A stretch of 64,000 nt of DNA from a bacterium (GCA_035622635.1 DASPUZ010000163.1:4813-68812), one strand, 5' to 3'; positions 1-60,661 are shown, numbered from the stretch's first letter. The notes: generated from the letters alone by a model not told the origin. Made by a program: numbers and translations.

Positions 1-395
1 CAGGTCCGCGTGAAGTGACTGCACCCAATCAGCGAATCGCTCGACCTGTTCCTTCGTAGGTTTGTGCTGCGGCTTCGCGTTGTGCTTGCGGCCCATGTGA
101 TCGGTGCGAGCGGATTCGTCTTGAGGAGCCCCATCATCAGCAGCCACCGGATAAACGTCCGCAGGGCCCTGTACGCTTGGTGCACGGTCGACGGCTTCAT
201 GCCCCGTGCGGGGAGCTTCGCGAGGTACGTTGTGATCCCGAGCGTATCGAGGTCGGCGACGGTCGACATGTCGGCGGCAATCCGGTCGAGCCACCACCGA
301 TACGTCCCCATCGTCCGTGCCGAACACCCGCCGACCTGCTTTTGGAGCAAGAACGCGTCGACCAGTTGCGGAGTCGTGCGAGGTACTGACGGCAT
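1..395 (-). CDS. Tyrosine recombinase / phage-type integrase, N-terminal part (gene runs off left edge; possible frameshift near nt ~100-110)
   Basis: Reverse translation from ATG 395..393 gives MPSVPRTTPQLVDAFLLQKQVGGCSARTMGTYRWWLDRIAADMSTVADLDTLGITTYLAKLPARGMKPSTVHQAYRALRTFIRWLLMMGLLKTNPLA. This fits the SAM-like N-terminal domain pattern of XerC/XerD-type integrases. It is absent from the ORF track because there is no stop inside the window. It lies 187 nt from the 3' end of tRNA-Pro. Confidence 0.6.
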   Translation of the reverse strand, partial: MPSVPRTTPQLVDAFLLQKQVGGCSARTMGTYRWWLDRIAADMSTVADLDTLGITTYLAKLPARGMKPSTVHQAYRALRTFIRWLLMMGLLKTNPLAPITWAASTTRSRSTNLRRNRSSDSLIGCSHFTRT

Positions 396-581
396 GTCAC
401 CCCGGCGTCTCCCGTGACGCCCTGTCGGACCCATGCGGGGGAACGATTCGGGGCAATGTCGGCGAGTCCGCGAACGGGACCGCCACTCTCACCACCCGCG
501 AAACCGAGAGTCGGACCTTTTAACTTTTCGCCCTGTTTTGCACCCCCTTCATCGTGCGCTAGGCCGTACTGTGTAACGGTT

Positions 582-658
582 TGGTCGGGGCGCCCGGACT
601 TGAACCGGGGACCTTCTGCTCCCAAAGCAGACGCGCTACCAAGCTGCGCTACGCCCCG
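582..658 (-). tRNA. tRNA-Pro (anticodon TGG), CCA encoded
   Basis: Reverse complement reads CGGGGCG-TA-GCGC-AGCTTGGTA-GCGC-G-TCTGC-TTTGGGA-GCAGA-AGGTC-CCCGG-TTCAAGT-CCGGG-CGCCCCG-A-CCA. This is a perfect cloverleaf with a 7-bp acceptor stem, GG in the D-loop, a TTCAAGT T-loop, anticodon loop T-T-TGG-G-A, and G37 as is typical of tRNA-Pro. Confidence 0.93.
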
Positions 659-992
659 TCGTTTCTGGGTCTGCGGAGGTGTGCGTCTGCTCATCCGCGC
701 CACCCCCCCAGATTCGCTCTAGGCTGGAGTGTAGCACAAATGATGACGCAAAGTGACGCGAGTGACATACCCCTCCCTTGCGAGTAATGCGGCAGACTCT
801 CGGCACGAGACGCTGACCATGGCGCTGCACTACGCGCGCCTCGCCCACGTGGACGTCGCGGCGCCTACCGGCGGGCGAGCCCCGTGGACGTCCTCACGCT
901 GGAGTAGGTCCTGCCAGCGTGACTACGCGCAAGGCCAGGCGGGCATAGGGGTCCTCAGACGGCCTCGGGAAAGGAGCGTTGACGTCGGCGCC

Positions 993-1355
993 ATGAAGAC
1001 CGAGAAGGCTATTCGAGACCGCGTGCGCCAGCTGCTCAGCCGCCGGCAGGGTTACCTCAACACGCTGCCGCTGGCTCCGCAGGTTGGCGTGCTCGAACGA
1101 GCCATTATCGAGCTGCTGTGGGTGCTCGGCGATGTGAAGAACGTCGACGAGGGCAACGAGGCGGTGGCGAAGCTGCAGCGTGCGCGCTCCCGCACCGGAC
1201 ACTCCGACCTCGTGGGCATGACCGTACGCGCCGTCAAGACAAACGGGTCTCGGGTGGTGCTGGAGCTCGCCTCCCGGGACGGCAGCGCGGAAATGCACGT
1301 GACGCACCCCGACTCGTCGGGAGGGCTCACCGTGACGCGTTGGGGGCGCACCTAG
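993..1355 (+). CDS. Hypothetical protein (~120 aa; internal Met chosen within ORF 753..1355)
   Basis: From MKTEKAIRDRVRQLLSRRQGYLNTLPLAP... the translation looks protein-like. The upstream part of the long ORF is Arg/Ala-rich shadow sequence. No recognisable family; start uncertain. Confidence 0.35.
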   Translation: MKTEKAIRDRVRQLLSRRQGYLNTLPLAPQVGVLERAIIELLWVLGDVKNVDEGNEAVAKLQRARSRTGHSDLVGMTVRAVKTNGSRVVLELASRDGSAEMHVTHPDSSGGLTVTRWGRT

Positions 1356-1442
1356 ACTGGGATGGCTCAAATCTGGAAGATGTTGGCGCTAATGGCGGCC
1401 AGCCGGGCGTGATAGGTCGCCCGCTCCTGCGGCGTCGGCAAG

Positions 1443-2205
1443 TTACGGCCGCCCTCCGGCCATGACGCTATGAAGGCTCGTAGGGAATGCGAATGATGAG
1501 TACTTGCAACCGCTCTTCCACGAGTTGCGGGAGGCATCGGCAGACGCGTCAACTGGGAAGCAGTCCACCCGTGCGAAAAGTGCGTCGCGCACGGCAACGA
1601 CATCAACGAGCGGGAAATCGGGCTGAGTGTGCGGGTCATACTGCGCGTGGGGCGCGGCCTCGCTCATCCAGAGCAACACTCGTACGCCCGGCTTCCGGTG
1701 GCGCCTCGAGTATGCGCCGAACGTGTGGACAATGGCGTTGCGCGCAGCCCACCACTCACTGCGGCTCAACTCTCCCACTACGCCCAGCCGGTGCAGGTCA
1801 GAGTTTCGGCCAGACCGCGCACGGTACTGTCACCGGCCGGGTGCAGTTCGCAAGCCAGCCGATTCAACGCGGCCTCCGCCTCCGCGTACGTCGGGCGCTC
1901 GTACGCCCACTGCAACTCCGCCGCCACGCCCCCTGCTGGCCGGTCGAAAGATAGGGCGTGACCTCCTCCGCGTAATGTCTGGTGTTGTCGCCGAGCACTC
2001 CATTCACCATGCCAGGGACGCTTCCCCCATTTCTCAATGAACTCCCGCGGAGACTCGTGCGCGGCGCCCCGCGTGTCCGATGCACGTCCGCGAGAACGCA
2101 AGAGGAGGATTCCGGAAGAATTCGCCGGTACTGGCCATCGAACACACGAAGGTGATTGACAGCACTTTCAACCCCACCCATAATGCCCCCAACAACCGAA
2201 TAGTC
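1443..2205 (-). pseudogene. Decayed Mutator/IS256-like transposase remnant (C-terminal half, several frameshifts)
   Basis: Three minus-strand frames read successively ..SVVGGIMGGVESAVNHLRVFDGQ.., ..DVHRTRGAPRTSLR.., and ..AELQWAYERPTYAEAEAALNRLACELHPAGDSTVRGLAETLTCTGWA(stop, -1 shift)VVGELSRSEWWAARNAIVHTFGAYSRRHRK. This order matches the motif order I recall for Mutator-type transposases (DG..L..Av..vF / H..RN / A.t..eAe.aL..l / P.aa.sL.eGleEtLT / tTNaIEs). No intact ORF spans it. Confidence 0.4.
2156..2184 (+). promoter_or_regulatory. Sigma70-type promoter candidate for the riboswitch-led operon
   Basis: TTGACA (2156-2161), exactly 17 nt of spacer, then CATAAT (2179-2184). The predicted transcription start at ~2191-2193 lies ~10 nt upstream of the conserved leader AGTCAGCA. 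Confidence 0.5.
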
Positions 2206-2286
2206 AGCACCGCCTTCGAACGGGCAAACCCGAAGCAATTCGGGGACGCAAAGCCACGGGACCCTCAGGGTCGGCCGGGTTGCCGA
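2202..2286 (+). promoter_or_regulatory. c-di-GMP-I (GEMM-I) riboswitch aptamer, copy 1
   Basis: Reads ..CGGGCAAACC-CGAA-GCAA-TTCG-GGGACGCAAAGCC-ACGGGACCC-TCA-GGGTCGGCCGGGTTGCCG. This aligns block for block with the Vibrio Vc2 aptamer as I recall it (GGGCAAACC, hairpin with GNRA tetraloop, GGGACGCAAAGCC, second hairpin, GGGUUnCCG). P1b stem CCCGAA/TTCGGG is capped by GCAA (2235-2238). Confidence 0.85.
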
Positions 2287-2309
2287 AAAGGAGCCGGGTG
2301 TACGTTGCC

Positions 2310-2350
2310 GGGCACGGAGGCCGTTCTGTGGCATCTGTGCCCTTGTTTTA
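2310..2350 (+). terminator. Terminator-like hairpin in the expression platform of riboswitch 1
   Basis: GGGCACGGA (2310-2318) pairs with TCTGTGCCC (2334-2342), giving 9 bp with one G-U. The loop is 15 nt and the stem is followed by TTGTTTTAT. Confidence 0.5.
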
Positions 2351-2456
2351 TCCTCTGCGGCGTCCGCGCGTTGGCTCGCACCGCTCGTCCGATAGCACTG
2401 CCTGCGCACGACACTACGGGAACGTGCTCCAAAAAAACGAATTGGGGAGGCAACCC

Positions 2457-2708
2457 ATGAGCAGTCGGGTCAATCATCAGGAGATCGTCAAGAAGGCGCT
2501 CGATGCCAAGGCGGTGGATTTTGCGGCGATCGGGAAGGTGATCGCCGAGGTGGGGCCGGCGCTCGCGCTCGCCGATGACCCCGGGGACTTCTTCTGCGGT
2601 ACCATGCGGCATTTCGTGCACGTCTATTCCGTCCGTGTCGTCAACGACGGCAGTGCGGTGGAAGAGTTGGGGGCTCTCGGGCGGGTTGCCGCGGAATTGC
2701 GGTCATAG
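2457..2708 (+). CDS. Hypothetical small protein (83 aa), first gene behind riboswitch 1
   Basis: ATG at 2457 is preceded by GGGGAGG 6 nt upstream. Translation is MSSRVNHQEIVKKALDAKAVDFAAIGKVIAEVGPALALADDPGDFFCGTMRHFVHVYSVRVVNDGSAVEELGALGRVAAELRS. The TAG stop (2706-2708) is immediately followed by the GTG of the next gene. Confidence 0.6.
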   Translation: MSSRVNHQEIVKKALDAKAVDFAAIGKVIAEVGPALALADDPGDFFCGTMRHFVHVYSVRVVNDGSAVEELGALGRVAAELRS

Positions 2709-4031
2709 GTGGCGGCCATTCACGAGGACGCCGAGGCGAGCGCCGGTGCTTCCGATGTCAACGGAGCCCGGTGGGACTCCGAGGACTTGGTGCGCCGTCT
2801 CTGCTGGGCGCTTGATATTGCCGAGCGGGCGGTGGACCGGCTCGCCGCAGCCGGATATGCCGATCCGGATGAAGTTGGAAACCATCTTCGTCCCGAGAAG
2901 CTGATCGCCGAGACCGCGTTTCTGTTGCTCAGTGCTTCGACGGCCGGGCGGTATCCCGAGGTGGAGCGGCGTGTTCGGCGCGTGGCGGAGCGGTTGACCC
3001 CTCACGCCCGAAGCGAGCGCATGATTCTCGGGATCTGCCTGGAGCCGGCCCTGGCCCTCGATTACGCGGAGGCGCACATCTGCCTGGCGAGGCTCGGGTA
3101 CCCCGACGTACGCTTCGACGCCGCACTCCGCCGTAGCCTCGGCGCACAGGCGCACGCCAGCCGCGAACGCCCTCCCCACCGTGTTCTCGAGCAGGATTGG
3201 CTCATGAGCGGCTGGACCGGCGCGCGAGCCTGCCGCGCGGCGCGCAGCTCGCAGGCGGTGTGGAACTCGGCACTGGGCCGCTCGATCGATCTGCTCGGCT
3301 GCACCCGTGAGGACGTGTACGCCTTTACTCACGCTCTAATGTACGTGGCCGACCAGGACCTCCATCCCCGGCGGTTGCCGCGCCCGAAGCCGGTGATCCT
3401 TGAAGAGGCCGAAGCCGCTCTCGCTTGGTGCCTCGACGAGCAGGATTACGATCTGGGCGGGGAGGTTCTGCTTGCATGGCCGCTCGTCCGGAGGCCGTGG
3501 AGCGCGGGGGCAGCGTTCGCGTTTCGAGTGCTGGCGCACGTCGAGGACCAGGCCGGCTTTCTCCCCGCACCGAGTACCCGCCTGCAGCGCCTCAACGCGC
3601 TGCGGGGTGATGCGCGCATCAACTACCTTTTGGCAACGGCGTATCACACGGCATACGTGATGGGGATGCTGTGCGCTGCGGTCCTGCGATTCGGAAGAAC
3701 ACCCCCATCCAAGATCCCTCGGACCCTGGCGGCGCGGGGCAGCGCACACAGAATCCTCCCGCTCCTCGACGCAGACGGAATGCACCCTCACTGGCGCGGC
3801 GAGTTTGACCACCTCCGTGGTCCGGAGCAGGACGCGATTGCGGGCTTCCTGCTGGCCATCGCACTGCGCCGGAAGGTGGGCCGGCGAGACATTGCCGGTC
3901 TCCACGACGTCCTGGCCATGGGACTCAGCCTGGGCCTGGCGGATTCCCCTGCGGCAAGCCAGGCCGCGGAACTGTTGGAACGCCTCGCCGGGGCGGCTCC
4001 GGAGTTACCGGTGGCCGCAGGGCGGAGCTAG
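2709..4031 (+). CDS. Hypothetical protein (440 aa, helix-rich by composition, no TM or signal peptide seen)
   Basis: Long ORF in a coding-like frame, with its GTG start abutting the stop of the 83-aa gene. I cannot assign any family motif. Confidence 0.7.
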   Translation: MAAIHEDAEASAGASDVNGARWDSEDLVRRLCWALDIAERAVDRLAAAGYADPDEVGNHLRPEKLIAETAFLLLSASTAGRYPEVERRVRRVAERLTPHARSERMILGICLEPALALDYAEAHICLARLGYPDVRFDAALRRSLGAQAHASRERPPHRVLEQDWLMSGWTGARACRAARSSQAVWNSALGRSIDLLGCTREDVYAFTHALMYVADQDLHPRRLPRPKPVILEEAEAALAWCLDEQDYDLGGEVLLAWPLVRRPWSAGAAFAFRVLAHVEDQAGFLPAPSTRLQRLNALRGDARINYLLATAYHTAYVMGMLCAAVLRFGRTPPSKIPRTLAARGSAHRILPLLDADGMHPHWRGEFDHLRGPEQDAIAGFLLAIALRRKVGRRDIAGLHDVLAMGLSLGLADSPAASQAAELLERLAGAAPELPVAAGRS

Positions 4032-4039
4032 TCCCGAAG

Positions 4040-4122
4040 AGTCAGCATCCTTCGAAGGGGCAAACCCGAAGCGATTCGGGGACGCAAAGCCATGGGACCC
4101 ACGAGGTCAGCCGGGCTGCCGG
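4040..4122 (+). promoter_or_regulatory. c-di-GMP-I (GEMM-I) riboswitch aptamer, copy 2 (intercistronic)
   Basis: Reads AGTCAGCATCCTTCGAAGGGGCAAACC-CGAA-GCGA-TTCG-GGGACGCAAAGCC-ATGGGACCC-ACGA-GGTCAGCCGGGCTGCCGG. It has the same blocks as copy 1. The tetraloop is GCGA (still GNRA). In the second hairpin, C2257:G2273 of copy 1 is replaced by T4093:A4109. It starts 9 nt after the stop of the 440-aa gene. Confidence 0.85.
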
Positions 4123-4147
4123 AGGGCACGAGCACAAAGGGAACACG

Positions 4148-4190
4148 GACGCGAGCAACTGTGACGGTGCGCTCGCGTCTTGCTTTCTTG
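4148..4190 (+). terminator. Intrinsic terminator-like hairpin in the expression platform of riboswitch 2
   Basis: GACGCGAGC (4148-4156) pairs perfectly with GCTCGCGTC (4171-4179) around a 14-nt loop. The stem is followed by TTGCTTTCTTG. Confidence 0.6.
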
Positions 4191-4222
4191 CTGACCCAAT
4201 TCGAATAAAGGGGGAAACTCAC

Positions 4223-6361
4223 GTGACGGACAACAGCGCCCAGAACCCCGTTTCACGGATCGGCAACCCGCCCGCGAAGGTTGACCTCACGAAATTACCG
4301 CCCGAGCGGGCCCGAGCGTCTTTTCGTGCGCTCATTCTCGCCAATCCCAACTACTTCGGAAACGTGACCGGCAGCCAATTCAAACCCGTCTTGAACATCG
4401 TTTCCGACACGACATACGAGGAGCTGCACTGTGTGGGATTCCAGCCCGCGCTGAACCGGCTGGAGGCCGTGGTCCACGTCAACCAGTCGACGGGGTATGG
4501 CGGCGACGTGTGCTCGAGCGGGTCGCGGGAGTACGTTCGCTTCTACCTCTCCTACGACAACGGCGCCACCTGGCAAGACCAGGGGTCGGTGAGCTTCGCG
4601 GTCTACGACGTGCCAGGGAACAAGCCGCTCGAATATGCTGCCACACTGGAACTCCAGCCCCCGCCGGCGGAGAAGCTGTGCTTCATTCAGAACCTCCCGA
4701 AAGTCAGGGCGATCCTCTCCTGGAACAACGATCCGCCTCCAAACACTCCGGCCTTTACGCCGGTGTGGGGCAACGTAGTGGATGCGCACATCCAGATCGA
4801 AGGGCTCGACCTGATCGTACTGGCCGACGTGCTGCAGGAGGCCAACGTCAGCCTGCCGATCGAGCTCGCCTCGTCGATCGACCTGTCGCAGAGCGTTCAC
4901 ACCGCCAAGGCAAAGGCGCTGAGCGCGGGTGAGTTGGTCGCTCTCTACCAGGGGACCAAGGTGCCATCGCACCGCTTCCTGTTCGCCGAGTTCCAGCAAC
5001 TCCTGGCCCACCCGCCGTTGACCCAGACCTTGATGACGGCAACGCCGTCATTGCCGCTGGCCGGGCTCGGCGTCAATGTCGGGGACGCGGTGGCCGGGCT
5101 GCTTGGCACGAGCGGCGACACCACGTACGAGGAGCTGGACTGCGTCGGGCTCGACTTCAATCGGGACGCGGTGGTGGGCGTGCTGAAGGTCAAGCAGCCC
5201 GGGGGCTATCTTGGCGGCCCGTGCACGGCCGGGAGCCAGGAGTATGTGGCGTTCTGGGTCGACTGGGGGGATGGCAAGGGGTGGACCTATGCGGGGACCG
5301 CGTCGGTCTCCGTTCACGACTTCAGCAGTATTCCGCTGGACGGCCTTGAGTACTCTGTGTATCTCCCCGTTGATATCGTCAGCCACATGCAACCGTGCGG
5401 CAGCGGGGCCAAGACGGCGCGTGTGCGCGCCATCCTTTCCTGGGAGACACCGCCGCCGCCGAGTAATCCAGACTACGTGCCGGTGTGGGGGAACCGGGAC
5501 GACACGTTGGTTCTCGTCCGGCCCGGGACCGCGCCCACCGCGTGCATGGCCAATATCAGCATCATCGGCGGGATCGGCATCGGCCAGATCGACACCGGCA
5601 GCACGGGATACACGGTGCCGAACGCGCTCTTTGCGCTCCAGGGCACCCCTGCCGATCCCTGGGTTCCCGCCCGGCAGTGCCCGTTTGGAGCCCGGATTGT
5701 CATTCAGGGATATCCGTGCGTCGGATACAAGTATCGCGTCAAAGTCAGGGACGTCACGGCCGGCGGGCTCCCGATCATATTGACCGATCAGATTTGGACG
5801 GTGGACAACAACGGCAACGGGACGTGGCGGAGTCCAGACGGGAGTGGGTTCTTCACGTACGTGGGTACGAGCGACAACATCGACAATGTCCTGGCCTACT
5901 GGGATTCCTCCGGCGACGATCTGTGGGAAGTCATGCTGGAGCTCGCGGACGCCAGCGACAACGTGCTCAACTGGACGCCCCAGTACCGAGTCCAGTTGGA
6001 CAACACCGCGCCCATCGCTGCAATCCACATCGATAGCGGCGGTGATTGCAAGCAGTTTACGGCGGGCGCCACGATCAACGGCCACTTCGTGGCGCAGGAC
6101 GCGAACTTCGGCGTGTTCGGGCTGAGCACGCTCCCGGCCTCCGTGAATCCCAATGAACCCACCACCGCCACGCCGGCGACATCGGAAACGGCGCCCTCGC
6201 CGGGTAACCCTTGGCAACTCAACACCGACACTCCCGACGAGATGCCGCCGTGCGGCTATGTCGTACACCTGGATGTGTGGGACCGGTCCATCCTGAACAG
6301 CGCTCCCGGTAACCACAACTACAATTCAGCCGACGTGGGCTTCTGCTTGCTGATCTCCTAG
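4223..6361 (+). CDS. Hypothetical protein (712 aa) with internal duplication of a ~130-aa domain
   Basis: GTG start is preceded by AAAGGGGGAA. Residues ~62-193 and ~299-433 share DTTYEEL.CVG, GY.GG.C..GS.EYV.F, LEY, (A)RVRAILSW..PPP..P...PVWGN. No signal peptide or TM segment; the C-terminal ~270 aa are Gly/Asn/Asp/Thr-rich (beta-like). Confidence 0.8.
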   Translation: MTDNSAQNPVSRIGNPPAKVDLTKLPPERARASFRALILANPNYFGNVTGSQFKPVLNIVSDTTYEELHCVGFQPALNRLEAVVHVNQSTGYGGDVCSSGSREYVRFYLSYDNGATWQDQGSVSFAVYDVPGNKPLEYAATLELQPPPAEKLCFIQNLPKVRAILSWNNDPPPNTPAFTPVWGNVVDAHIQIEGLDLIVLADVLQEANVSLPIELASSIDLSQSVHTAKAKALSAGELVALYQGTKVPSHRFLFAEFQQLLAHPPLTQTLMTATPSLPLAGLGVNVGDAVAGLLGTSGDTTYEELDCVGLDFNRDAVVGVLKVKQPGGYLGGPCTAGSQEYVAFWVDWGDGKGWTYAGTASVSVHDFSSIPLDGLEYSVYLPVDIVSHMQPCGSGAKTARVRAILSWETPPPPSNPDYVPVWGNRDDTLVLVRPGTAPTACMANISIIGGIGIGQIDTGSTGYTVPNALFALQGTPADPWVPARQCPFGARIVIQGYPCVGYKYRVKVRDVTAGGLPIILTDQIWTVDNNGNGTWRSPDGSGFFTYVGTSDNIDNVLAYWDSSGDDLWEVMLELADASDNVLNWTPQYRVQLDNTAPIAAIHIDSGGDCKQFTAGATINGHFVAQDANFGVFGLSTLPASVNPNEPTTATPATSETAPSPGNPWQLNTDTPDEMPPCGYVVHLDVWDRSILNSAPGNHNYNSADVGFCLLIS

Positions 6362-18160: not shown

Positions 18161-20194
18161 TCAGTGGGCCGTCGGCTGGGATTGCTCGGCCAGGAACTTC
18201 TCGATGCCCCGGGCGATCGCGTCGGCTATGCGCCGCTGGACTGCCGGATCGCAGAGCATCGCTTCCTCCTTGGGGTTGCTGATGAACGCGGTTTCGATCA
18301 GGATCGCCGGCATCTGCGCGTTGACGATCACGTAGAACCGCGCGGTCTGGAGGCCCCGATCAGGCTCGCCGAGCGCGTGGGTCACCTCCGTTTGCACCAG
18401 TTCGGCCAGCGGGCGGCTCTGGGGAGTGTAGTAGTACGTCGTCGTCCCTTGAACGCTGGAATCGCTGCTCGCGTTGGCGTGGATGCTCACGAACAGGACA
18501 CCGCCATAGCGCTGCGCGAGGTCCGGGCGATCCTCGAGCGCGACCGAGGTGTTGGTTGTGCGCGTCATGACCACGCGGATCCCCTGACCTTCGAGCGCGT
18601 CCCTGACCATCGAGCCGATGCCGAGGACGACATCCGCTTCGTGCGTTCCGTGGGGACCGATCGCCCCGGGGTCGTCGCCGCCGTGCCCGGGATCGATGAT
18701 TACCGCGGGTACCACCGGTCCCCGCCGACCCGCGCCGGCGAACGCGACCGTGAGGGTCCGGCCGCCGTCGGCGGCCGCCACGGTGTAGGCCACCTTCTGG
18801 TTGAGACGCACCAGAACTCGGGTCATATTCGGACGGAGGGTGAATTGAGAGACCACGACGTTGCGAATGCCGCCGCTATCGATCTCGATGTCGGCCCGCC
18901 GGTCTCGAAACACTCCGTTCGCGATGTCGATCGCGATGCGGTCCGGGTACGTCCACTGGTGCACCTCGAACGCAACGCGCTGAGACGCTTGGATGAGAAG
19001 ACGCCCGGTAGCGCCGTCGTACGTCACCGACTGGACGTGAAACGCCCCGGGACCGTCGGTGAACTCCGGGAGGGGCGGCAGTGCAACGGGCTCCGGCTCG
19101 CCCGAGGCCTCGGCCGTCGAGACCTGTCCCGAGCCGGAATCGGCGACGCTCGCATCCGATCCTCCCTTGGCGCCGGTCGCAGCGGACGTCGGTTCTGATC
19201 TGGGCGGCGCCGGCGTCGAGCCGGGAGATTCGCGTCCCGGCGGCGCACTCCCCGCGGCGGCACCGGGCGGGCCCGACCCCGCCGCGGACGGGACGGATCC
19301 CGCGGCCTGCGGCCCGTTCCCCGCCGCGTGCGCGCCGGTCGAGGCCCCTGGCGCCTGGCCCGACGGGGTTGACGCTGCGCCGCTCGCCGCCGCCGTGGCT
19401 GCCCCGCCGCCTCCGGCGCCGCTCGCGGGCGGCGTCGAGGCGGACGAGCCTGCCGCCGGAGATCCGGCACCGAGCGCCAGCGTCACCGCCCCGGGGCTCG
19501 CCGTCACGCGAAACGGCAACGGGCGTGCGAGGTCGAAGACGAGCCGCGTCACGTAGGGCCGTACGTGGAACTGCGCGGCCCGCATGTCGATGACCGCCCC
19601 TAACCCGATCGAGGCTTGAGGAGGATTGAGCCGGATCACCGCGCTCTGAAGATCGATGACGAGCCGGTCCGGCGCGTGGAGCACACTCCCGGTCGCCCGC
19701 ACCGGCCCGGTCGAGGACACCGTCACGGCCAGGCCCGCGGCGTCTCCGTGCCAGTCCAGGCCGGTGACCTGCGACACCACGTCGAGCGTCCCGTCGTCGT
19801 GCTGCTCGACGTAGGCGCCGAGCCCCCGCAACACCCGCGCCACAGGGGCGACCACCACGCCGTCCTGCAGGACCGGTGCCACCGGGAGGTCCCATTGGGC
19901 ATCGCCCTGGGTGACGGCCGTCTGGCCGACGACCAGCCGGAGTGTGGTGCCCGAGACGCCACGCAACACGAGCGCGTGCGCCGCCGCGTCCCACTGCGTC
20001 GTGCCGCCAAACGCCTGCACGATCGGGGCGATCGGGGCCACGACGACCCCGTCCCCCGCTTCGGCCGGCGCGGGCAGCGACACCGCGGTATCGTTCACCA
20101 CGATTTGAACCGGTGCGGCTTGAGCGGACGCCGTACGGGAACCCGCACACAACAATGCCGGGAGAAGAGCGAGGGCGGCCCACCACGGCTTCAT
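18161..20194 (-). CDS. N-acetylmuramoyl-L-alanine amidase (Amidase_3) with N-terminal stalk, AMIN-like domains and a Pro/Ala/Gly/Ser linker
   Basis: Signal peptide MKPWWAALALLPALLCAGSRTASAQA. The catalytic end reads VIIDPGHGGDDPGAIG...FVSIHANA...ILIETAFISNPKEE. Confidence 0.85.
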   Translation of the reverse strand: MKPWWAALALLPALLCAGSRTASAQAAPVQIVVNDTAVSLPAPAEAGDGVVVAPIAPIVQAFGGTTQWDAAAHALVLRGVSGTTLRLVVGQTAVTQGDAQWDLPVAPVLQDGVVVAPVARVLRGLGAYVEQHDDGTLDVVSQVTGLDWHGDAAGLAVTVSSTGPVRATGSVLHAPDRLVIDLQSAVIRLNPPQASIGLGAVIDMRAAQFHVRPYVTRLVFDLARPLPFRVTASPGAVTLALGAGSPAAGSSASTPPASGAGGGGAATAAASGAASTPSGQAPGASTGAHAAGNGPQAAGSVPSAAGSGPPGAAAGSAPPGRESPGSTPAPPRSEPTSAATGAKGGSDASVADSGSGQVSTAEASGEPEPVALPPLPEFTDGPGAFHVQSVTYDGATGRLLIQASQRVAFEVHQWTYPDRIAIDIANGVFRDRRADIEIDSGGIRNVVVSQFTLRPNMTRVLVRLNQKVAYTVAAADGGRTLTVAFAGAGRRGPVVPAVIIDPGHGGDDPGAIGPHGTHEADVVLGIGSMVRDALEGQGIRVVMTRTTNTSVALEDRPDLAQRYGGVLFVSIHANASSDSSVQGTTTYYYTPQSRPLAELVQTEVTHALGEPDRGLQTARFYVIVNAQMPAILIETAFISNPKEEAMLCDPAVQRRIADAIARGIEKFLAEQSQPTAH

Positions 20195-30096: not shown

Positions 30097-32106
30097 TCAA
30101 CGTTGCTCGACCGTATACCGGTGCACCCAGTCGGCGACGCGCTGGACGATGTCGATCCTGTGGCTCGGGCGGCCGTTCCCCCGGAATGTGTGGCTCTCCC
30201 CAGGGTACCGCACCAGCTCAACCGGCACCCGGCCCGCCGCCACGAGTCCTGTGAAAAACTCCTCGCCCTGTCCGATCGGGCAGCGATCATCCGCCTCGCC
30301 ATGCACGATCAGCGTCGGGGTGGTGACGCTCTCCACGTAGTTGATGGGCGACAGGCGCCGGTATGCCTCCCGTTGCCGTGTGAGATCCCCCCCCACCTCC
30401 CACGCACCGAACCACAGCCCGACGTCGGAGGTCCCGTAGAACGATTCGAAGTTCACGACGGGGGCGCCGACGACCGCGGCCTTGAACCGGTCGGTGTGCG
30501 TGATCGTCCAGGCCGTCATGAAGCCGCCGTAGGAATACCCGCTCACCGCGAGCCGCGCCGGATCCGCCAAGCCCGATGCGACGAGCGCGTCCACCGCGGC
30601 CAGTTGTTCCGGAAGATCGTATTCGCCCCACCGGCCCCGGATGCCGTGCGCGAACGCCTTGTCATAGGAACCCGAACCGGTCGGGTTCAGCTCGAGCACC
30701 GCCCAGTTGCGTGCGGCCAGGACGAACACGTGGAACGACCCGGTGGGAAACCCGTTGCCGTGATAGCTGTGCGGCCCGCCGTGGATCTCGACGAGGAGCG
30801 GGACCGGCCCCCTACCGCTTTCAACGGGGTGGACGACCCACCCGTCGAGTTCGACGCCCTGGGGACTGACGAATACGCGGCGCTCCACCCGGGGCAGGAT
30901 CCCCGGGGAGAGCCAATCCTCGTTCACGCGAGTCAGCCGGTGTTCATTGGTCCCGTCCTCACGGCACGCATACACGTCGCTGGGAACATGCCACTCGGTG
31001 GCGCAGAACGCGATCCGCCCCGCCGCCAACGAGAACCCCTGTACCTGGCGCCCGCCGCCGACGACGGATCGTACGGCTCCGTCAGGCACGGACACCCGCG
31101 CCAGGTGCACGTCCCCCGTGTCGGCGATCGGCACGACCACGGACCCGCCGTCCGCTGACCACGCCGGCGGCGGCGTCGCCTCCGGTGGGCGAGCCAGCGC
31201 GACGGAGCGGTGATAGCCTGCGGTGATCGCCCGGGCCGGTCCGCCATCCGCGGGTACCACCCAGACGCGCACCATCGCGTCCCCTAACCCGGGCTCCTGC
31301 TCGTCGTGACCGTAGAAGGCGATGAGCCGGCCATCGGGGGACCAGGACGGCACGGCGACCCGCCCGACGGCGTCCGTGAGGCGCCGCGCGTTCCCGCCGT
31401 CGACGTCCATCACCCACAGATCGAACAGGCTGTAGTCTGTCACGCCGGTGCGTGCACGGGCGAAGGCGAGCCGGCGCCCGTCGGGTGACCACGCGGGGGA
31501 AACGTGCTCCGCGTCACCGGCGGTGCGCTGCGAGGTCTCACCGCCGTCGATCGTTGCGACGAACACATGGGCGACCGTGTCGAACGTGTACCCCACCCCG
31601 TCCGTCTTGTATTGGGCCCGCGTCACAACGCGAGGCCGCTGTGCACGTCGGTCGTGGGCCCCGTCCTCGGCCGGCGCCGGATCCTTCGCGACGCGCGCCG
31701 AGAACGCAAGCTGGGAGCCGTCGGGCGACCAGATCGCCGGTCCTGCCCCGCCTGCCAGCGAGGTCAGCCGGTGGGGCTCACCGCCGGCAATCGGGAGCAG
31801 ATAGAGTTGCGCCGCCTGTCCGCCGCGGTCAGAGAGGAAGGCCATCCAGCGCCCGTCGGGCGACCATCGCGGCGCCCAGTCGCGGCCGGGACCTCTCGTG
31901 ACCCGGCGGTGACTGTCGCTGTCCGTCACCGTCCAGATCGCGGAGCGATAGCCGTCGTCCGCCAGATCCATCTCGGTGCGGGTGTACGCGACGAGCCGGC
32001 CGTCCGGCGAGAGCTGAGCGTCGGACGCGATCACAACCTTTGCCAGATCACGGGGCTGGATGACATGCGGTGGATCGGGCACAGGGTTCCTCCTTCCGTT
32101 TCTCAC
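30097..32106 (-). CDS. S9 family serine peptidase (beta-propeller plus prolyl-oligopeptidase/acylaminoacyl-peptidase domain)
   Basis: Repeated SPDG..(L/I)AF propeller motifs. Nucleophile context [10 protein letters not shown], then HG..D..CP. GTG overlaps the glgB stop (GTGA). Confidence 0.85.
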
Positions 32107-34427
32107 CCTCGCCGGACGCCCACGATGGACCGCTCGCCTACGGCGCCGAGTGCCGCGAGCCGCCGATCGAGGTCGCGGATCCCGCGGCGGTGGCGCAGTT
32201 CTTCACCGACGGATTCCAACACGTACCGTAGGACGGCAGGCGCCATTGAACTGTGACGCTCCTGCTCGAGTGTCCAGATGAGCGCCGCCAACCGCCGGAC
32301 CGCGTCACGCGGGCCGAGCCGGGGCCTCGTCTGGACCGCCGCGACACCGGGTTCGTGGAGTGTCACAAGAGCCTGCGCGCCCTCGGAGCGGGCGCGCGGG
32401 GTCACCTGCGGCACGCCTTCGGGCGTGCGCTGGGAGGCGTCCGCACTGCCGTTCGCCCGCCATCCCTCTCCTAGCTGCCACGACGCCTCGGACGCCGCAT
32501 CGTCCCACGGGATGACGGCATCGCTCAGGAGAAAGATCGCACCGAGCGGAGGCAGCGTGAGCACCACCGAATACGGGTGACCGTGAGCCGGGACCGACTC
32601 GCCAAAGATGCCTTCGTTTGTGACCCCGCTGCCTCCGTACTCGCGCGCGTCGCTGTTCAGCACCTCACGCCACACCCCCCCGCGGGGCACGCCGACACGA
32701 TATCCGGGACGAGGGACAGGCGTGAAGTTGAGCACGCCGACCACCAGGCGACCGGGCGAGCGCCCACGACGGATCAGGCTGACCACGCTCTGGTCCCGAT
32801 CGCCGCAGTCGATCCACGCGAACCCTCGAGGATCGCAGTCCCACTCGTGCAACGCCGGTTCCGCACGGTACCACCCGTTGAGCGCCCGCACCCACCGCTG
32901 GATCCCGAGGTGGGGAGGGTGATCCAGCAGGTGCCAGTCGAGGCTCTCGTCGTGGTGCCACTCCCGCCACTGCCCGAACTCTCCGCCCATGAATAGGAGC
33001 TTCTTGCCGGACTGCAGGTACATATAGCCCAACAGCAGGCGCAGGTTGGCAAACTTCTGCCAGTCGTCCCCGGGCATCTTTGCGAGCAACGACCCTTTGC
33101 CGTGGACCACCTCGTCGTGCGACAACGGAAGCACGAAGTTCTCGGTAAAGGCGTAGAGGCCCCGAAACGTGAGCGTGTCGTGATGATACCTGCGGTGCAC
33201 CGGGTCGTGCGCCATGTACTGCAGGGTGTCGTGCATCCACCCCATGTCCCACTTGAGCCCAAAACCCAATCCCCCGGTGTCCGTGGGACGGGAGACCTGA
33301 GACCACGCCGTAGACTCTTCCGCGATCGTGTATGCCGAGGGATAGTGCCGATAGACCTCTTCGTTGAGGCGGCGCAGAAACGCGAGCGCCTCGAGGTTCT
33401 CGCGCCCGCCCTGTTCGTTCGGGATCCACTCTCCCTCACGCCGCGAGTAGTCCAGGTACAGCATCGACGCCACCGCGTCCAGGCGCAGCCCGTCTGCGTG
33501 GTACTTGTCGAGCCAGAACAACGCGTTGCTCAATAGGAAGCTCCGCACTTCGTGCCGCCCGTAGTTGAAGATGCTACTGTGCCAATCGGGATGCAGGCCG
33601 CGCCTGGGATCGGCGTGCTCGTACACGTGCGTGCCGTCGAAATACACCAGCCCGTGCTCGTCTGTCGGAAAGTGCGACGGGACCCAGTCCAGGATGACGG
33701 CGATACCGTGCCGGTGGAAGGTGTCCACCAGGTACATGAAGTCCTGCGGGGCGCCGTATCGGCTCGTGGGAGCGAAGTACCCGGTGGTCTGGTATCCCCA
33801 GGACCCGTAGAAGGGATGCTCCATCACCGGCATCAACTCGACGTGGGTAAAGCCCAGGTCCCGGACATATCTGGGCAGGCGGGCAGCGAGCTCCCGGTAC
33901 GTCAGGGCGCGGTGGCCCTCCGACGGGACCCGCATCCATGAGCCGAGGTGAACCTCGAAGATGGCCGCGGGCGACACGAGGATGTTCCGGCGGCCTCGCG
34001 ACGCAAGCCACGCCGCGTCGCTCCACGCATAGCCGAGGTCCCATACGACGGACGCGGTGCCCGGCGGCCGCTCGGCGCGCAGGGCAAAGGGATCGGCTTT
34101 GTCCACCCGGTAGCCGCCGCCTTTGGCGACGATGTGATACTTGTACAGACTCCCCGGGGGTACGCCCGGGACAAAGCGCTCCCAGATTCCCGATGTCTCC
34201 CGCACCCGCATCGGGTGGACATCCCGGTCCCACCCGTTGAAGTCTCCGACGACGGACACCTGCTCGGCGTTGGGCGCCCAGACGGCAAAGTACGCGCCCG
34301 GCACACCGCCGACGGTCATCAAATGCGCGCCGAGCTTCTCGTAGAGGCGGACGTGGCTGCCCTCGTTGAACAGGTACAGATCCTCCGCGGTCAACATCGT
34401 CACGTCCTGCGTTCCGGTCGTCTTCAT
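32103..34427 (-). CDS. glgB: 1,4-alpha-glucan branching enzyme with ~138-aa C-terminal extension
   Basis: Reads YEKLGAH...[74 protein letters not shown], and [14 protein letters not shown]. Confidence 0.9.
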
Positions 34428-34505
34428 GGCCGCCGCAGCCTCCCGGGCGTCTGACCCTCGTGTGACCTGCCGGCGCGGGTGTGCTGTCCGTGCCGCGTCA
34501 CGGGC

Positions 34506-37040
34506 CTACCGTTGCCACAAGATAAGCCCGGCTTCCGCCGGGATGCGCACATCGCGGTGGAATGGCACGATCCGAGGCGTGTAGTCCGAAGCAGACCGGG
34601 ACGCCGGGAGATGCGCACGGTAATGGTAACTGTTGCCCTCTCCCGGCAGCCGCTCCTGCCGCTCCATCGCCACGCACTCGGCGGGCCCCGCGCTGTCCAG
34701 CGGCGGGGCGTAGAGCTCGACGTTGATCCACCCCGGCTCGAGCGCGCCCAACGATACCGCGATATCGAAGCGCCACCCGTCGCCCTCCTGGCGCACATCC
34801 AGCGGCCCGAACTTCATCTCCGACCAGTGCTCGGCAAGACCGTTCCACCACTTGCGCAGCTCCTTCGAGAGCCTGGCCCCTTCAGCGCACCGGCACCTGA
34901 CGGCCTCCATCGCCGGCAGGTAGAACCGATCCAGATACTGCCGGATCATCCGGTTCCCGCTGAACTGGGGCGCGAGGCGCGCCATGCTGGTCCGCATCCG
35001 CGCGATCCAGGCACGCGGCAGTCCGGCGCCGTCCCGTGCATAGAACTTCGGGACGACGTCTTCCTCGAGGAGCGTGTAGAGCTGGACCGCCTCTTGGGCG
35101 TCACGCGCGGCGTCGGTGCAGTTGCCGGGGCCGCCCAGCGCCCATCCCACGTCCGGCGCATACCCCTCGTCCCACCACCCATCGAGCGCCGACAGGTTCA
35201 GGCCGCCGTTCACGAGCACCTTCATCCCGCTGGTCCCGCAGGCCTCCCAAGGGCGCCGGGGCGTATTGAGCCAGAGGTCCACGCCCTGCACGAGTTCCTG
35301 CGCGAGCGCCATGTCGTAGTCCTCCAGGAAGATCGCGTGCTCCCGCACCGCGGGATCAGCGGCAAACTCCGTCCACATGCGCACGATCTCCTTACCCGGC
35401 GCATCCGCCGGGTGAGCCTTGCCCGCGACGATGATCTGCACCGGGTGCGCCGGATCCAAAAGCAGCCGGACCAGCCGGTTGCGGTCGCGCAGCAAGAGTG
35501 CCGGCCGCTTGTACTCGGTCATGCGCCGCGCAAACCCGATCGTCAGCGCCTTCGGATCGAGCACGCGGCGTGCCCGTATCACGGCGTCCGGAGTCGCGCC
35601 CTGGTGCGCGAGTTGCCGCGCCAGGCGTTCGCGAGCGTAGCGGATCAGCTCCTCGCATTTCGAGTTTCGGAACCTCCACAGCGTCTCATCGGCAATCCGC
35701 TCGATTGCCTCCATGACCGGGGGCACGTCGCCCCGCCACCGCTCCTTGCCACACGCTTCGGACCACAGCGCGTCCGCCGGAACGGAGTCCCACGACGACG
35801 TGTGCACGCCGTTGGTGACGTACCCGATGGGAATCTCATGCTCGGGCCAGCGCGGATACAGCGGCTGGAAGATCCTCCGGCTCACCATCCCGTGCAGCCG
35901 GCTGACGCCGTTGGCGCCCCCGCACCCGCGCATGGCTAGGTACGCCATGCTGAACGGTTCCTGTTCATCGTGCGCGTCCCTGCGGCCGAGGGCCAGCAGT
36001 TCCCGGGAGGAGAGACCGCCCGATCCGGTCAGACCCGGGAGTTGTGAGAAGTGCTGCGCGACGAGGTCCGGAGGGAAGACATCGAATCCCGCGGCAATGG
36101 GCGTGTGCGTCGTGAAGAGGTTGCCAGCCCTGGTCGCCCACCACGCGTCCCAAAACGACACGCCGGAATCCGCCATGAACCGTCTCGCCCGTTCGACGAC
36201 GACGAACGCCGCGTGGCCCTCGTTGAGGTGGCAGACCGTCACCGGCACTTCGAGCGCCTCGAGCGCCCGCCAGCCCGCGATCCCCAGGACGAACTCCTGC
36301 AGAAACCGCTGCTCGACACCGCCACCGTACAGGGTGCTCGTGATGCCACGGTCCGGGGCGCTGTTCCACGGATCGTTCGTGTCGAGCAGATACAACATCA
36401 CCCGACCGACGACGGCGGACCACACACGGACCCAGAGCGTGCGTCCCGGCAGCGCCAGCGGGACACGCAGCCATGCCCCTTGGGCCGTGCGGGCGGGCTG
36501 GATCGGAAGACTGCCCGGATCGCTGTAGGGGTAACTCTCCTGCTGATGTCCCTCCGCGTCCAGAACCTGTCGAAAATACCCCTCGTAGTACAGCAGCCCG
36601 ACGGCGACGACCGGAACGCCGAGATCGCTCGCGGTCTTCAGGTAGTCTCCGGCGAGCACCCCGAGGCCGCCCGCATAGAGCGGCAGGGCATCGCTCAACC
36701 CGAACTCCATGCTATAGTACGCGATCGTTCCGACCGAGGAACCGGGATAGGTCCGCGCGCACCAACCGGGATTGTCGAGATACCGGGTGCGCTCGTCGAC
36801 CAGGCGCCGCAGGGTCGCGACGAACTCACGGTCCCCGGCGAGCCGTTCGAGCGTGGCGCGTGGTACCTCCTGCAGGACCAGCCATGGATTGTGAAACCGC
36901 GCCCACGCCTCCGCGCTGAGGGAGCGCCATAGCTCGTCCCCCGCACGGTTCCAGGTCCACCGCAAATCCAGCGCTAACTCGTGAAGCTCCTCAAGTTCCT
37001 GTGGAAGGTCAGTGCGCGATACGGCACGCAACGAGTTCAT
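34506..37040 (-). CDS. glgP: Alpha-glucan phosphorylase (GT35, maltodextrin/glycogen phosphorylase type with DUF3417-like N-terminus)
   Basis: Internal Met 37040 with RBS GGAGG. Reads LALDLRWTW, AYYSMEFGL...LPLYAGGLGVLAGD, NEGHAAF, and GTSGMKVLVNGGLNLSALDGWW. Confidence 0.88.
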   Translation of the reverse strand: MNSLRAVSRTDLPQELEELHELALDLRWTWNRAGDELWRSLSAEAWARFHNPWLVLQEVPRATLERLAGDREFVATLRRLVDERTRYLDNPGWCARTYPGSSVGTIAYYSMEFGLSDALPLYAGGLGVLAGDYLKTASDLGVPVVAVGLLYYEGYFRQVLDAEGHQQESYPYSDPGSLPIQPARTAQGAWLRVPLALPGRTLWVRVWSAVVGRVMLYLLDTNDPWNSAPDRGITSTLYGGGVEQRFLQEFVLGIAGWRALEALEVPVTVCHLNEGHAAFVVVERARRFMADSGVSFWDAWWATRAGNLFTTHTPIAAGFDVFPPDLVAQHFSQLPGLTGSGGLSSRELLALGRRDAHDEQEPFSMAYLAMRGCGGANGVSRLHGMVSRRIFQPLYPRWPEHEIPIGYVTNGVHTSSWDSVPADALWSEACGKERWRGDVPPVMEAIERIADETLWRFRNSKCEELIRYARERLARQLAHQGATPDAVIRARRVLDPKALTIGFARRMTEYKRPALLLRDRNRLVRLLLDPAHPVQIIVAGKAHPADAPGKEIVRMWTEFAADPAVREHAIFLEDYDMALAQELVQGVDLWLNTPRRPWEACGTSGMKVLVNGGLNLSALDGWWDEGYAPDVGWALGGPGNCTDAARDAQEAVQLYTLLEEDVVPKFYARDGAGLPRAWIARMRTSMARLAPQFSGNRMIRQYLDRFYLPAMEAVRCRCAEGARLSKELRKWWNGLAEHWSEMKFGPLDVRQEGDGWRFDIAVSLGALEPGWINVELYAPPLDSAGPAECVAMERQERLPGEGNSYHYRAHLPASRSASDYTPRIVPFHRDVRIPAEAGLILWQR

Positions 37041-37351
37041 CAACCTCCGGCTCGGACACGCCGACGCTTCTCGACACACGCATACCAGGGACGCCGCGAG
37101 CGCCCCTGGCGGCACGGTGCGCATCCGAAACATCCCGCGACCGGCCGGGCATCCGCGGACAGGCCCGCCCGCGCACCGGTCGCGACCGTCGCATCCAGGA
37201 CGTCTGAAACGATGGCGTTCTGCGTCCTCGTCGGGCGGGTCTCGCCTCCCGCCGGACGCGGACACCGCCCGCTATCTTCCGCCTCCGTTCCGGTTATTCC
37301 CTCCCGGCGTGATCGAGGGACCTAGCGCGTGACGGCGCCCCGCGCGGTGGG

Positions 37352-41142: not shown

Positions 41143-42441
41143 CTACTCCCGCTCGATCTGCAGCTTGAGGAAGTGCGTCGAGCACGAGATGCACGGGTCG
41201 TAATTGCGCACGGCCTGCTCGCACTGCCACGTGAGCTGGTCTTCCGGCAGCGCCAGCGACGCCTGCACGAAGCCGCGCAGGTCCACCTCGATCTGCGCCT
41301 GGTTCTGCGAGGTCGGGGGGGTGATCCTTGCGTCCATGATACCCCCGGAGGCGTAGATCCTGTACCGGTGATACAGGATTCCGCGCGGCGCCTCGGTGCA
41401 TCCGTACCCGGTACCCGCTCGAACGGGCACGTCCGCCGCGGGCGGGTCGGGCGGCTCGTACGCGCCGATCAACCGGAGCGCCTCCTCACAGGCGTACACG
41501 GTCTCGACCGCACGCACCACGATGCTCTGGAACGGGTTGCGGCAGGTGGGACCGAGACCGGCCTCGCGCGCAGCCTCCTGAGCGAGCGGCGTTAACTCGT
41601 CGAAGGCCAGATTGTACCGGGCCAGCGGCCCCACGAAGTACGTACCGCGCGCTCGGACCCGCGAGTGGAGTGCGGTGGAGTGCTGCACGTGTTCCTCCAC
41701 AAAGTGCTGATCGTACTCCTGGACGGCGATGTCCAGTCCCCGGTTCGAGACGATCCGGCCGCGGTCGATCGGGTACTCGCCCGGCTGCCGGAGCGACACA
41801 AACTCGTAGTCCTGGACGAAGTCCGGGAACGAGAACCCGGCTACCCAGCGGACCGTCTCGAGCGCCGCATCGCGCGCCCAACGGAGGCGTTCGGCGATCT
41901 CCGTGAACTCCCGCCGGGCGGGTGCACGGTAAAAGCCGCCGACCCGCTCGTTGATGGGGTGCACCTCCCGGCCGCCGATGATCACCATCAGATCGTTCCC
42001 GATCTTCTTGAGCCGCAGCCCGCGCTCGGCGATCTGCGGATGGTCCCGGGCCATCGGGATCACGCTCTCGTACCCAAGGAAGTCAGGCGCATGGAGCATA
42101 TAGATGTGCAGCGCGTGGCTCTCGATCCACTCCCCGCAGTACAAAAGCCGCCGCAGCAGGCGCACTCGATCGTCCACGGTGACCCCGCACGCGTCCTCCA
42201 TCGCCGCGCAGGCGCTCATCTGGTACGCCACGGGGCAGATCCCGCAGATGCGCGACGTGATATCGGGGGCCTCCGTGAACCGCCGGCCCCGCAGGAACGC
42301 CTCGAAGAAACGGGGTGGCTCATAGAACCGCAGGCGGACTTCGCGCACCTGACCGTCTTTGACCCGGACGTACAACCCGCCCTCGCCCTCGACGCGTGCC
42401 AGGGCATCGACCCTGATTGTGCGCGTGCTACCTTTTTTCAT
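41143..42441 (-). CDS. [NiFe]-hydrogenase large subunit, group 3b-like
   Basis: N-terminal Ni-binding motif [10 protein letters not shown] and C-terminal motif DPCISCSTH, followed by a 9-aa cleavable tail. About 432 aa, typical of cytosolic group 3 enzymes. Confidence 0.9.
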
Positions 42442-52465: not shown

Positions 52466-52806
52466 CTCTCGACCGTCACCACCATCGGCATTGGACAGTC
52501 CCGGCTCAATTGCCACACAGGTATTCCCCCGGCAACCGCCGACCCCCTCTCGGCCGCGCATCCGTCCCCGTCGCCGGCTGCTCGGCACCGACAGGACCGC
52601 GTCAGGGTCGGGCAGAAGCACAGGTCGCGGACATCGGCGCGAACCATCCCACGTTCTCTACCATACCGGACCGGACACGGCGCGGGCGCGGCTCGCATCG
52701 TTCGGGGCAAAGATGCGCCGGGCAGAGGGAGCCTGGCGCCGGAGACCGCCATCGCGCACCGGCGCGGAGCCGCGACCATGCCGGACACGGCGTCCGGAGG
52801 GACCGC

Positions 52807-60105: not shown

Positions 60106-60289
60106 CGTGCACCCCCAACCGATGATCCTGGGAGATTGCGAGAGGGCGACTCAGCGCGCGCAGGATCGATACTCATGTGTTTGTGTCCCCCAACGGCGAA
60201 CTCCTGCCGGTTCGACACTTCGGCAACAAAGCACTGGGGACGGCCTCATCGGCCGTCCCCAGCACGCAGCGTCGTTTGTAGGGTCGAAG

Positions 60290-60496: not shown

Positions 60497-60661
60497 ACTA
60501 TCCCACCTTCTTACCAGTGCTACCAACCGACTTTTCAGCCCGCTGATGCCGTATTAGTATGGCATATTCGATCCATAAAGTAAACAAAAAAAGCTACTGC
60601 CCATAATCGCCGACCACCCGGTCGGACAGGCGGGAAGACCGAACCGAACCGTAGTTCGGCT

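Follow-up and report, generated by a model that had tools for sequence, protein, structure and literature searches.

The 64,000-nt stretch GCA_035622635.1 DASPUZ010000163.1:4813-68812 (hereafter the window; 67% G+C) carries two aptamers of the c-di-GMP (cyclic diguanosine monophosphate) riboswitch clan c-di-GMP-I. They are designated RS1, the aptamer at 2214-2288 together with its expression platform, and RS2, a second copy at 4050-4124. Judged from its sequence, RS1 is a genuine c-di-GMP-I-clan riboswitch aptamer with its own promoter and terminator, and RS1 and RS2 together probably switch off three conserved genes at high c-di-GMP. The arrangement that we favour on balance is a single transcription unit with two serial c-di-GMP-I riboswitches and OFF switching, in which the distal gene would meet two checkpoints.

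According to this model, transcription would start from the promoter at 2156-2184 and produce a single unit. RS1, which with its platform spans 2214-2351 in the 5′ leader, would gate the genes for an 83-amino-acid protein and a DUF6895 protein, and RS2 (4050-4189), which lies in the 191-nt interval between the DUF6895 gene and the gene for a 712-amino-acid protein, would additionally gate the latter. Binding of c-di-GMP would lock helix P1 of the aptamer, so that the terminator forms and transcription stops. At low c-di-GMP, the 5′ strand of RS1 P1 would pair with the 5′ arm of the terminator, and this antiterminator would allow read-through. Because it has two checkpoints to pass, the gene of the 712-amino-acid protein would be expected to show a steeper c-di-GMP response than the genes proximal to the promoter.

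Two related aptamers

The entire window was scanned on both strands (128 kb) with Rfam cmscan at the gathering thresholds, and the E values were computed for 128 kb × 4227 families. Under the clan competition applied to the output, the best-scoring member of a clan is reported and the lower ones are only counted. Altogether three matches were obtained, one transfer RNA (tRNA) and two to RF03167 (c-di-GMP-I-GGC) of clan CL00126. RS1 at 2214-2288 (+) scored 61.6 bits (gathering score 59, E 4e-12, model positions 1-80 of 80) and RS2 at 4050-4124 (+) scored 61.4 bits (gathering score 59, E 4.7e-12, full length). Both copies pass the gathering score over the full model and are read in the same sense as the genes behind them, which makes them members of CL00126, to which RF01051 and RF03167 belong. 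No further c-di-GMP-I copy was detected by Rfam in the 64 kb, even at a permissive E <= 0.1.

An earlier note on this DNA had proposed a c-di-GMP-I (GEMM-I) riboswitch at the position of RS1 and an Rfam search with RF01051 on the + strand as its check. The full-length match above the gathering score at 2214-2288 bears out the clan, but not RF01051 as the best model, as RF03167 ranks first at both RS1 and RS2. All the sequence blocks that had been quoted for 2221-2286 are in place: GGGCAAACC at 2222-2230, the CCCGAA-GCAA-TTCGGG hairpin that makes up P2 at 2229-2244, GGGACGCAAAGCC at 2243-2255, a second hairpin at 2257-2277, and GGGTTGCCG at 2277-2285. In RS1, P1 is formed by approximately 2212-2218 and 2284-2295 and P3 by 2252-2281, and in RS2, P1 consists of CCUUCG and CGGAGG at 4049-4054 and 4120-4125. 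Throughout the three-way junction, all modelled pairs of P1, P2, and P3 are G-C, A-U, or G-U in both copies, and the P2 tetraloops are GCAA and GCGA (GYRA). The P1 helices pair in a register shifted by 1 nt relative to the Rfam alignment in both copies, which leaves a 5-nt joining strand from P1 to P2 (AACGG/AAGGG), a length shared by several metagenomic members.

RS2, which is absent from the earlier note, is 88% identical to RS1, lies ~1.8 kb downstream of it, and is likewise followed by a hairpin and a T-rich tail. The leader box CCGAAGAGTCAGCA at 4034-4047 (+) is common to the RS1 leader (2196-2209), and the duplicated riboswitch segment has its 5′ edge here. The identity of ~88% runs from this common box (CCGAAnAGTCAGCA) through P1, beyond which the two copies diverge completely, and their expression platforms show no sequence relation. 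Where the stems of RS1 and RS2 differ, pairing is preserved (G-U to G-C, C-G to U-G, and U-A to U-G), and the remaining differences fall into loops, a bulge, and the joining strand.

Among metagenomic contigs, a related riboswitch was found on L169. This contig, with 70% G+C, carries an aptamer, a promoter, and a 17-bp terminator at 1-330 (- strand) and stops before the regulated gene. Its aptamer is 96% identical to that of RS1, and no other likeness exists between L169 and the window. The strong conservation of the aptamers amid unrelated flanks in RS1, RS2, and L169 argues that the aptamers are functional.

The RS1/RS2 locus itself is present on four other public contigs of the same strain and on contig L106. 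Several c-di-GMP-I aptamers on one contig were also seen elsewhere in metagenomes, with five within 1.2 kb on L182 (270-1426), three within 4 kb on L139 (5155-9292), and further multi-aptamer cases on L112 (871-1008), L144, and L149.

Promoter and probable co-transcription

Upstream of RS1, a sigma-70-type promoter is located at 2156-2184 (+). It consists of TTGACA (2156-2161), a 17-nt spacer, and CATAAT (2179-2184), agrees with the consensus at 11 of 12 positions, and predicts a transcript start at ~2191. It is the sole TTGACA-17-CATAAT-like site in 1800-5000, a region for which shuffled sequences give an expectation of 0.1. The promoter of L169, TTGACA-17-GATAAT, stands at the same distance from the aptamer and has a spacer of unrelated sequence, and it thus provides a small phylogenetic footprint. 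The view of RS1 as a complete unit of promoter, aptamer, and terminator, put forward in the earlier note, was upheld. The proposed end of the operon at 4031 probably has to be given up: the promoterless RS2 follows the stop codon of the DUF6895 gene, and after it comes the conserved gene for the 712-amino-acid protein.

We infer that RS2 is transcribed from the RS1 promoter, which is the simplest reading of the sequence, because RS2 has no promoter site of its own, the promoter was not duplicated, and the RS2 leader box lies immediately behind a gene. A scan of 1800-5000 for sigma-70-like sites found no promoter-like site upstream of RS2, the duplicated segment takes in the transcribed RS1 leader and excludes the RS1 promoter, and the leader box begins 3 nt beyond the DUF6895 stop codon (TAG, 4029-4031). 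The genes for the 83-amino-acid, DUF6895, and 712-amino-acid proteins all have the same direction. These observations also count against the possible but rather unlikely alternative that RS2 is a separate transcription unit with an unrecognised promoter, in which case the locus would give two transcripts rather than one two-checkpoint operon. Such an arrangement would be in keeping with the complete terminator at each riboswitch and with the fact that the cassette of the 83-amino-acid and DUF6895 genes and the gene for the 712-amino-acid protein are never adjacent in other genomes, which suggests separable modules. A weak or non-consensus promoter in front of RS2 could exist, and this is a point against co-transcription from the RS1 promoter.

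Terminators and direction of switching

Terminator-like sites were searched on both strands with strict settings, i.e., a stem of no fewer than 8 bp, 5 or more of them G-C pairs, with a minimum of 6 T in the 9 bases that follow. The 64-kb window contains five such sites, as compared with 0.7 in shuffled sequences, and two of the five lie 21-22 nt 3′ of the RS1 and RS2 aptamers on the same strand. The RS1 intrinsic terminator at 2310-2351 (+) has the stem GGGCACGGA / UCUGUGCCC with an inner GCCG / UGGC (2310-2342) and the tail UUGUUUUAU, and the duplex of its arms amounts to -24.3 kcal/mol. It corresponds to the 9-bp hairpin and tail that had been noticed earlier behind the aptamer; the 9 bp are continued by 4 further bp on the inner side, and TTGTTTTAT forms the tail. 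The RS2 intrinsic terminator at 4147-4189 (+) has a 10-bp stem, GGACGCGAGC / GCUCGCGUCU (4147-4180), and the tail UGCUUUCUU, with an energy of -23.2 kcal/mol. The 17-bp terminator of L169 occupies the corresponding position. In RS1, RS2, and L169 alike, the aptamer and the terminator are free of overlap and coexist in the full-length minimum-energy folds, which corresponds to an OFF-switch layout.

The RS1 switching region (2293-2328, +) contains a linker hairpin at 2293-2313 and the segment 2315-2328, which may engage the leader and the P1 5′ strand (2205-2218) as antiterminator candidates. In the antiterminator fold, 2315-2328, made up of the terminator 5′ arm and loop, pairs with 2205-2218, and the GGCAA/ACCCG of the aptamer pairs with 2295-2309. 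For an RS1 transcript that ends at 2328, immediately ahead of the terminator 3′ arm, the antiterminator is the minimum-energy fold at -53.7 kcal/mol, 9 kcal/mol better than the -44.5 kcal/mol obtained with the aptamer enforced. L169 shows the textbook arrangement, where the terminator 5′ arm pairs with the P1 3′ strand and the linker (AGAGGGCUCCG) over 11 bp. Modelled in this way, the system as a whole has an OFF polarity, with c-di-GMP leading to termination, as its somewhat likely mode of action.

Several results weigh against this polarity. The RS1 antiterminator duplex (-16.4 kcal/mol) is not better than those of G+C-rich shuffles (mean -15.9 kcal/mol), and duplex-energy statistics were accordingly rejected as support for the antiterminator helices, being no better than shuffles in G+C-rich sequence. 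At equilibrium, the RS1 terminator is favoured even without ligand (-63.5 vs -54.3 kcal/mol), so that the model calls for a kinetic competition while the RNA is being made. For RS2, the folding found no alternative that competes with the aptamer or sequesters the terminator arm (-39.7 vs -39.6 kcal/mol). The modelled folds thus allow that the RS2 terminator might be constitutive or work in another way, and its role beyond constitutive attenuation is an assumption of our model. In addition, the RS2 P1 5′ strand is complementary to 4195-4212, including the Shine-Dalgarno sequence (-14.9 kcal/mol, equalled by 70 of 1000 shuffles), which would point to translational ON control.

From such pairing an opposite polarity can be constructed, in which c-di-GMP would raise expression, for instance because the CU-rich P1 5′ strand would release the Shine-Dalgarno sequence, with the hairpins being no more than leaky constitutive attenuators. 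An ON polarity has been predicted for some c-di-GMP-I riboswitches elsewhere (PMC9481103). In the window, the P1 5′ strands (GCCUUCG and UCCUUCGAAGGG) are anti-Shine-Dalgarno-like, that of RS2 can cover the AGGGGG Shine-Dalgarno sequence, and RS2 has no convincing antiterminator. Against this stand the non-overlapping aptamers and terminators of RS1, RS2, and L169, as well as the antiterminators of RS1 and L169, which are mutually exclusive with P1. The Shine-Dalgarno complementarity is only weakly significant and would have to stretch 150 nt across a terminator. We therefore regard ON switching as doubtful and retain OFF switching as our working reading.

The leader box of RS2 has a further property. 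Its GUCAGCA (4041-4047) is exactly complementary to UGCUGAC after the terminator tail (4189-4195), and in the full-length RS2 fold the aptamer and the terminator both lie inside the resulting long-range helix. The RS1 leader has the GUCAGCA box but no matching partner downstream.

Binding pocket and family assignment

In the cmscan alignment, the ligand-contacting positions are occupied by G2223 (G20), A2250 (A47), and C2283 (C92) in RS1, and by G4059, A4086, and C4119 in RS2. These are model positions 10, 37, and 75, which we take to be positions 20, 47, and 92 of the Vc2 aptamer. Both copies have the G20, A47, and C92 equivalents that characterize c-di-GMP-I. The RF03167 consensus has G at the intercalating position 37 (GACGCGAAgCc), and both window copies have A there (GACGCAAAGCC). 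Read from these bases, the pocket of RS1 and RS2 is the canonical G/A/C, whereas that of the variant would be G/G/C. In this we assume, judging by the consensus, that "GGC" stands for positions 20/47/92. Based on the canonical contacts and the GYRA tetraloop, the ligand of RS1 and RS2 is most likely c-di-GMP.

It is highly improbable that RS1 and RS2 are true c-di-GMP-I-GGC variants with a possibly altered ligand specificity, even though RF03167 is the best model at both sites, barely over its gathering score (61.6 and 61.4 vs 59). A pattern search of metagenomes, in which either A or G was permitted at position 47, matched 122 aptamers of the same architecture, and all 122 had A. When 17 of the metagenomic loci were run through Rfam, RF03167 nevertheless came first for the best aptamer in 13, with up to 80 bits, and RF01051 (gathering score 35) came first in the others. 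Since A47 aptamers of metagenomes mostly also score best with RF03167, its ranking is uninformative on the pocket and therefore reflects the short, G+C-rich P3. The RF03167 model thus appears to capture compact G+C-rich canonical aptamers, and a top rank in it does not show a variant pocket. Because of the base at position 37 and the behaviour of the 17 control loci, the true GGC variant was rejected as a candidate.

RF01051 itself may also match both copies. Matches suppressed by the clan competition that reach a gathering score number 2 in the window, 4 in the window at E <= 0.1, 3 in a further scan, and 19 in the scan of the 17 loci. These counts would fit RF01051 passing its gathering score of 35 at both window sites, where the displayed bit scores are those of RF03167.

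Riboswitches for 3′,3′-cyclic GMP-AMP (cGAMP; GEMM-Ib) fall within the same structural clan, and only a handful of bases set them apart from binders of c-di-GMP. G versus A at a contact position distinguishes the binders of c-di-GMP from those of c-AMP-GMP (PMC9481103). As cGAMP-selective variants have A at the Vc2 G20 equivalent (PMC9481103) and both window copies have G, a cGAMP specificity is the least credible reading.

Genes downstream of the riboswitches

The first gene after RS1 (2457-2708, +) is preceded by the Shine-Dalgarno sequence GGGGAGG (2445-2451) and encodes a protein of 83 amino acids, a conserved partner of DUF6895 proteins. In three unrelated contigs, DUF6895 genes are immediately preceded by homologues with 52-58% identity, and by this conservation the open reading frame (ORF) is a real gene. 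No match to the protein was found in Pfam, NCBIfam, or PADLOC. Its stop codon is abutted by the GTG start of the second gene (2709-4031, +), which encodes a 440-amino-acid protein of the DUF6895 family (Pfam PF21836; 159 bits vs a gathering score of 23.8, E 2.2e-46, profile positions 4-289 of 289). This protein has 549 homologues, mainly in metagenome bins of Acidobacteriota and Verrucomicrobiota. Its structure model is all-alpha with a predicted local distance difference test (pLDDT) score of 87, and no significant fold match was obtained in PDB, the best being weak resemblances to (alpha/alpha)6-barrel enzymes (E > 0.4). NCBIfam gave a single weak match to a sigma factor (E 0.026). The title of a 2026 ACS Catalysis article in the references of PMC13352647 speaks of an epimerase of the DUF6895 family whose substrate is a lasso peptide; no lasso-peptide genes were found in the window.

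The gene downstream of RS2 (4223-6361, +; Shine-Dalgarno AGGGGG at 4209-4214) encodes a conserved hypothetical protein of 712 amino acids with 2467 homologues in Acidobacteriota, Nitrospirota, Chloroflexota, cyanobacteria, and other groups. In its structure model (pLDDT 86), beta-sandwich domains follow one another in a chain and two repeats are present at the N-terminal end, and the fold search returned only generic multi-Ig or macroglobulin-like matches with template modelling scores of 0.1-0.17. None of the three proteins had a match in PADLOC, a sequence match in PDB, or an informative match in NCBIfam. The genes had previously been described as orphans of no recognisable function. They are not orphans, given the DUF6895 match (E 2.2e-46) and the conserved 83-amino-acid partner.

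Riboswitches and genes in other genomes

We also examined the association of these genes with c-di-GMP riboswitches elsewhere. Rfam found no c-di-GMP riboswitch at any of the 11 nearest genome loci of the 712-amino-acid family (0/11). A regular expression for the GEMM-I core, which recovers 114 of 120 positive controls, gave no hit at 80 genome loci with 712-amino-acid homologues or at three DUF6895 loci. Conversely, none of 120 metagenomic riboswitch loci had these genes, apart from a contig of the same strain. The 83 related loci from other genomes thus rule out that the riboswitch is conserved together with the genes. The genes for the 83-amino-acid and DUF6895 proteins form a conserved two-gene cassette; a conserved module of all three genes was rejected, as the flanks of the 712-amino-acid homologues contain neither DUF6895 nor its partner and the metagenomic riboswitch loci, save for the same-strain contig, lack these genes. 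Because no riboswitch was found in the related loci examined and the modules are never neighbours elsewhere, riboswitch control of these genes is a lineage-specific acquisition that probably came about by duplication of one riboswitch leader. Close to one 712-amino-acid homologue, in a Terriglobia bin, the Acido-Lenti-1 small RNA (RF01687) is repeated in tandem, with four copies (contig L005, 10132-10452, -).

Genomic surroundings

At the left edge of the window, tRNA-Pro(TGG) at 582-658 (-; Rfam tRNA match 585-658) adjoins an integrase fragment. In contig L081 of the same strain (1-5471), an HTH_17 excisionase-like gene and some ten small ORFs come after the integrase, and an element is probably integrated at the tRNA 3′ end. 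The riboswitch operon lies on the opposite side of the tRNA, outside the integrated element.

Further along, a sub-threshold match to the cspA thermoregulator (RF01766; 47 bits vs a gathering score of 78, E 7e-9) at 60231-60653 (-) and a strict terminator-like hairpin at 60262-60234 (-) were found, and this region is probably a cold-shock protein gene with its leader. The genes at 41143-42633 (-), 32103-37265 (-), and 51985-54222 (+) include those for a NiFe-hydrogenase large-subunit-like protein, a glycogen branching enzyme, a glucan phosphorylase, and a 6-phosphogluconate dehydrogenase. The gene at 18161-20194 (-) encodes an AMIN/Amidase_3 protein that has a Cu_amine_oxidN1 domain. The source genome is absent from the matching GTDB species representatives, for which the best hit was 59%. 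The nearest named relatives of the GlgB of the window have ~70% identity and are spread across Chloroflexota, Armatimonadota, and NC10.

Implications

The locus is an ordinary further example of a well-known regulator and leaves the understanding of how riboswitches work unchanged. It is mildly unusual in the two-checkpoint layout of its operon and in its gene families, and it adds a clean and complete c-di-GMP-I example, with promoter, aptamer, and terminator, from an uncultured bacterium of 67% G+C. It also illustrates that a best hit to the Rfam GGC-variant model does not imply a variant pocket, and that the pocket bases need to be read directly. Our reading would put two large uncharacterised families into a c-di-GMP regulon, DUF6895 with its 83-amino-acid partner and the beta-sandwich family of ~700 amino acids that has thousands of members in soil bacteria, which hints at a role tied to the switch from motile to sessile life. 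The two-checkpoint operon is a testable design, as genes within one operon should show different dose-responses to the same signal.

More speculatively, c-di-GMP signalling in this lineage might have captured two widespread modules and wired them in series behind duplicated riboswitches. The small protein and the DUF6895 enzyme could be a peptide-modification pair resembling those of ribosomally synthesized and post-translationally modified peptides, and the multi-beta-sandwich protein may belong to the cell surface. If this is true, a single messenger would exert graded control over the first module and sharper, two-checkpoint control over the second, and both uncharacterised families would have a first regulatory handle.

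Comparison with known systems

The two aptamers share with Vc2 and RF01051 the three-helix junction, a P2 capped by a GNRA-type tetraloop, and P3, as well as the conserved GGCAAACC and GGGACGCAAAGCC blocks, the G/A/C contact bases, and the location in a 5′ leader with the expression platform downstream. They differ in that the tetraloop is GCAA or GCGA (GYRA) instead of GAAA with its receptor, P3 is short and G+C-rich, and the strand joining P1 to P2 has 5 nt rather than 6 nt. The GYRA loop is the "type 2" layout of GEMM riboswitches. RF03167 is the best model at both sites and has the same compact architecture, but its variant-defining G at model position 37 is replaced by A in the window aptamers.

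Serial or tandem riboswitches of class c-di-GMP-I are the commonest multi-riboswitch arrangement, with 347 doublets and 12 triplets, and in Desulfobacca acetoxidans clusters they are separated by ORFs (PMC9481103). As in these systems, one gene region in the window is served by more than one aptamer of a single class, with a terminator for each, and a sharper response is expected. The copies in the window are, however, two genes (1.8 kb) apart and not stacked in one leader, so that the proximal genes would see one checkpoint and the distal gene two.

For the direction of switching, the Cd1 c-di-GMP-I riboswitch of Clostridioides difficile is a suitable comparison, being a terminating OFF switch upstream of the flagellar flgB operon. 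This operon is discussed in PMC5386303. Promotion of premature termination in the leader by c-di-GMP would be common to Cd1 and the present riboswitches, for which the OFF polarity is predicted only, whereas the genes controlled are different and the host is here a high-G+C uncultured bacterium.

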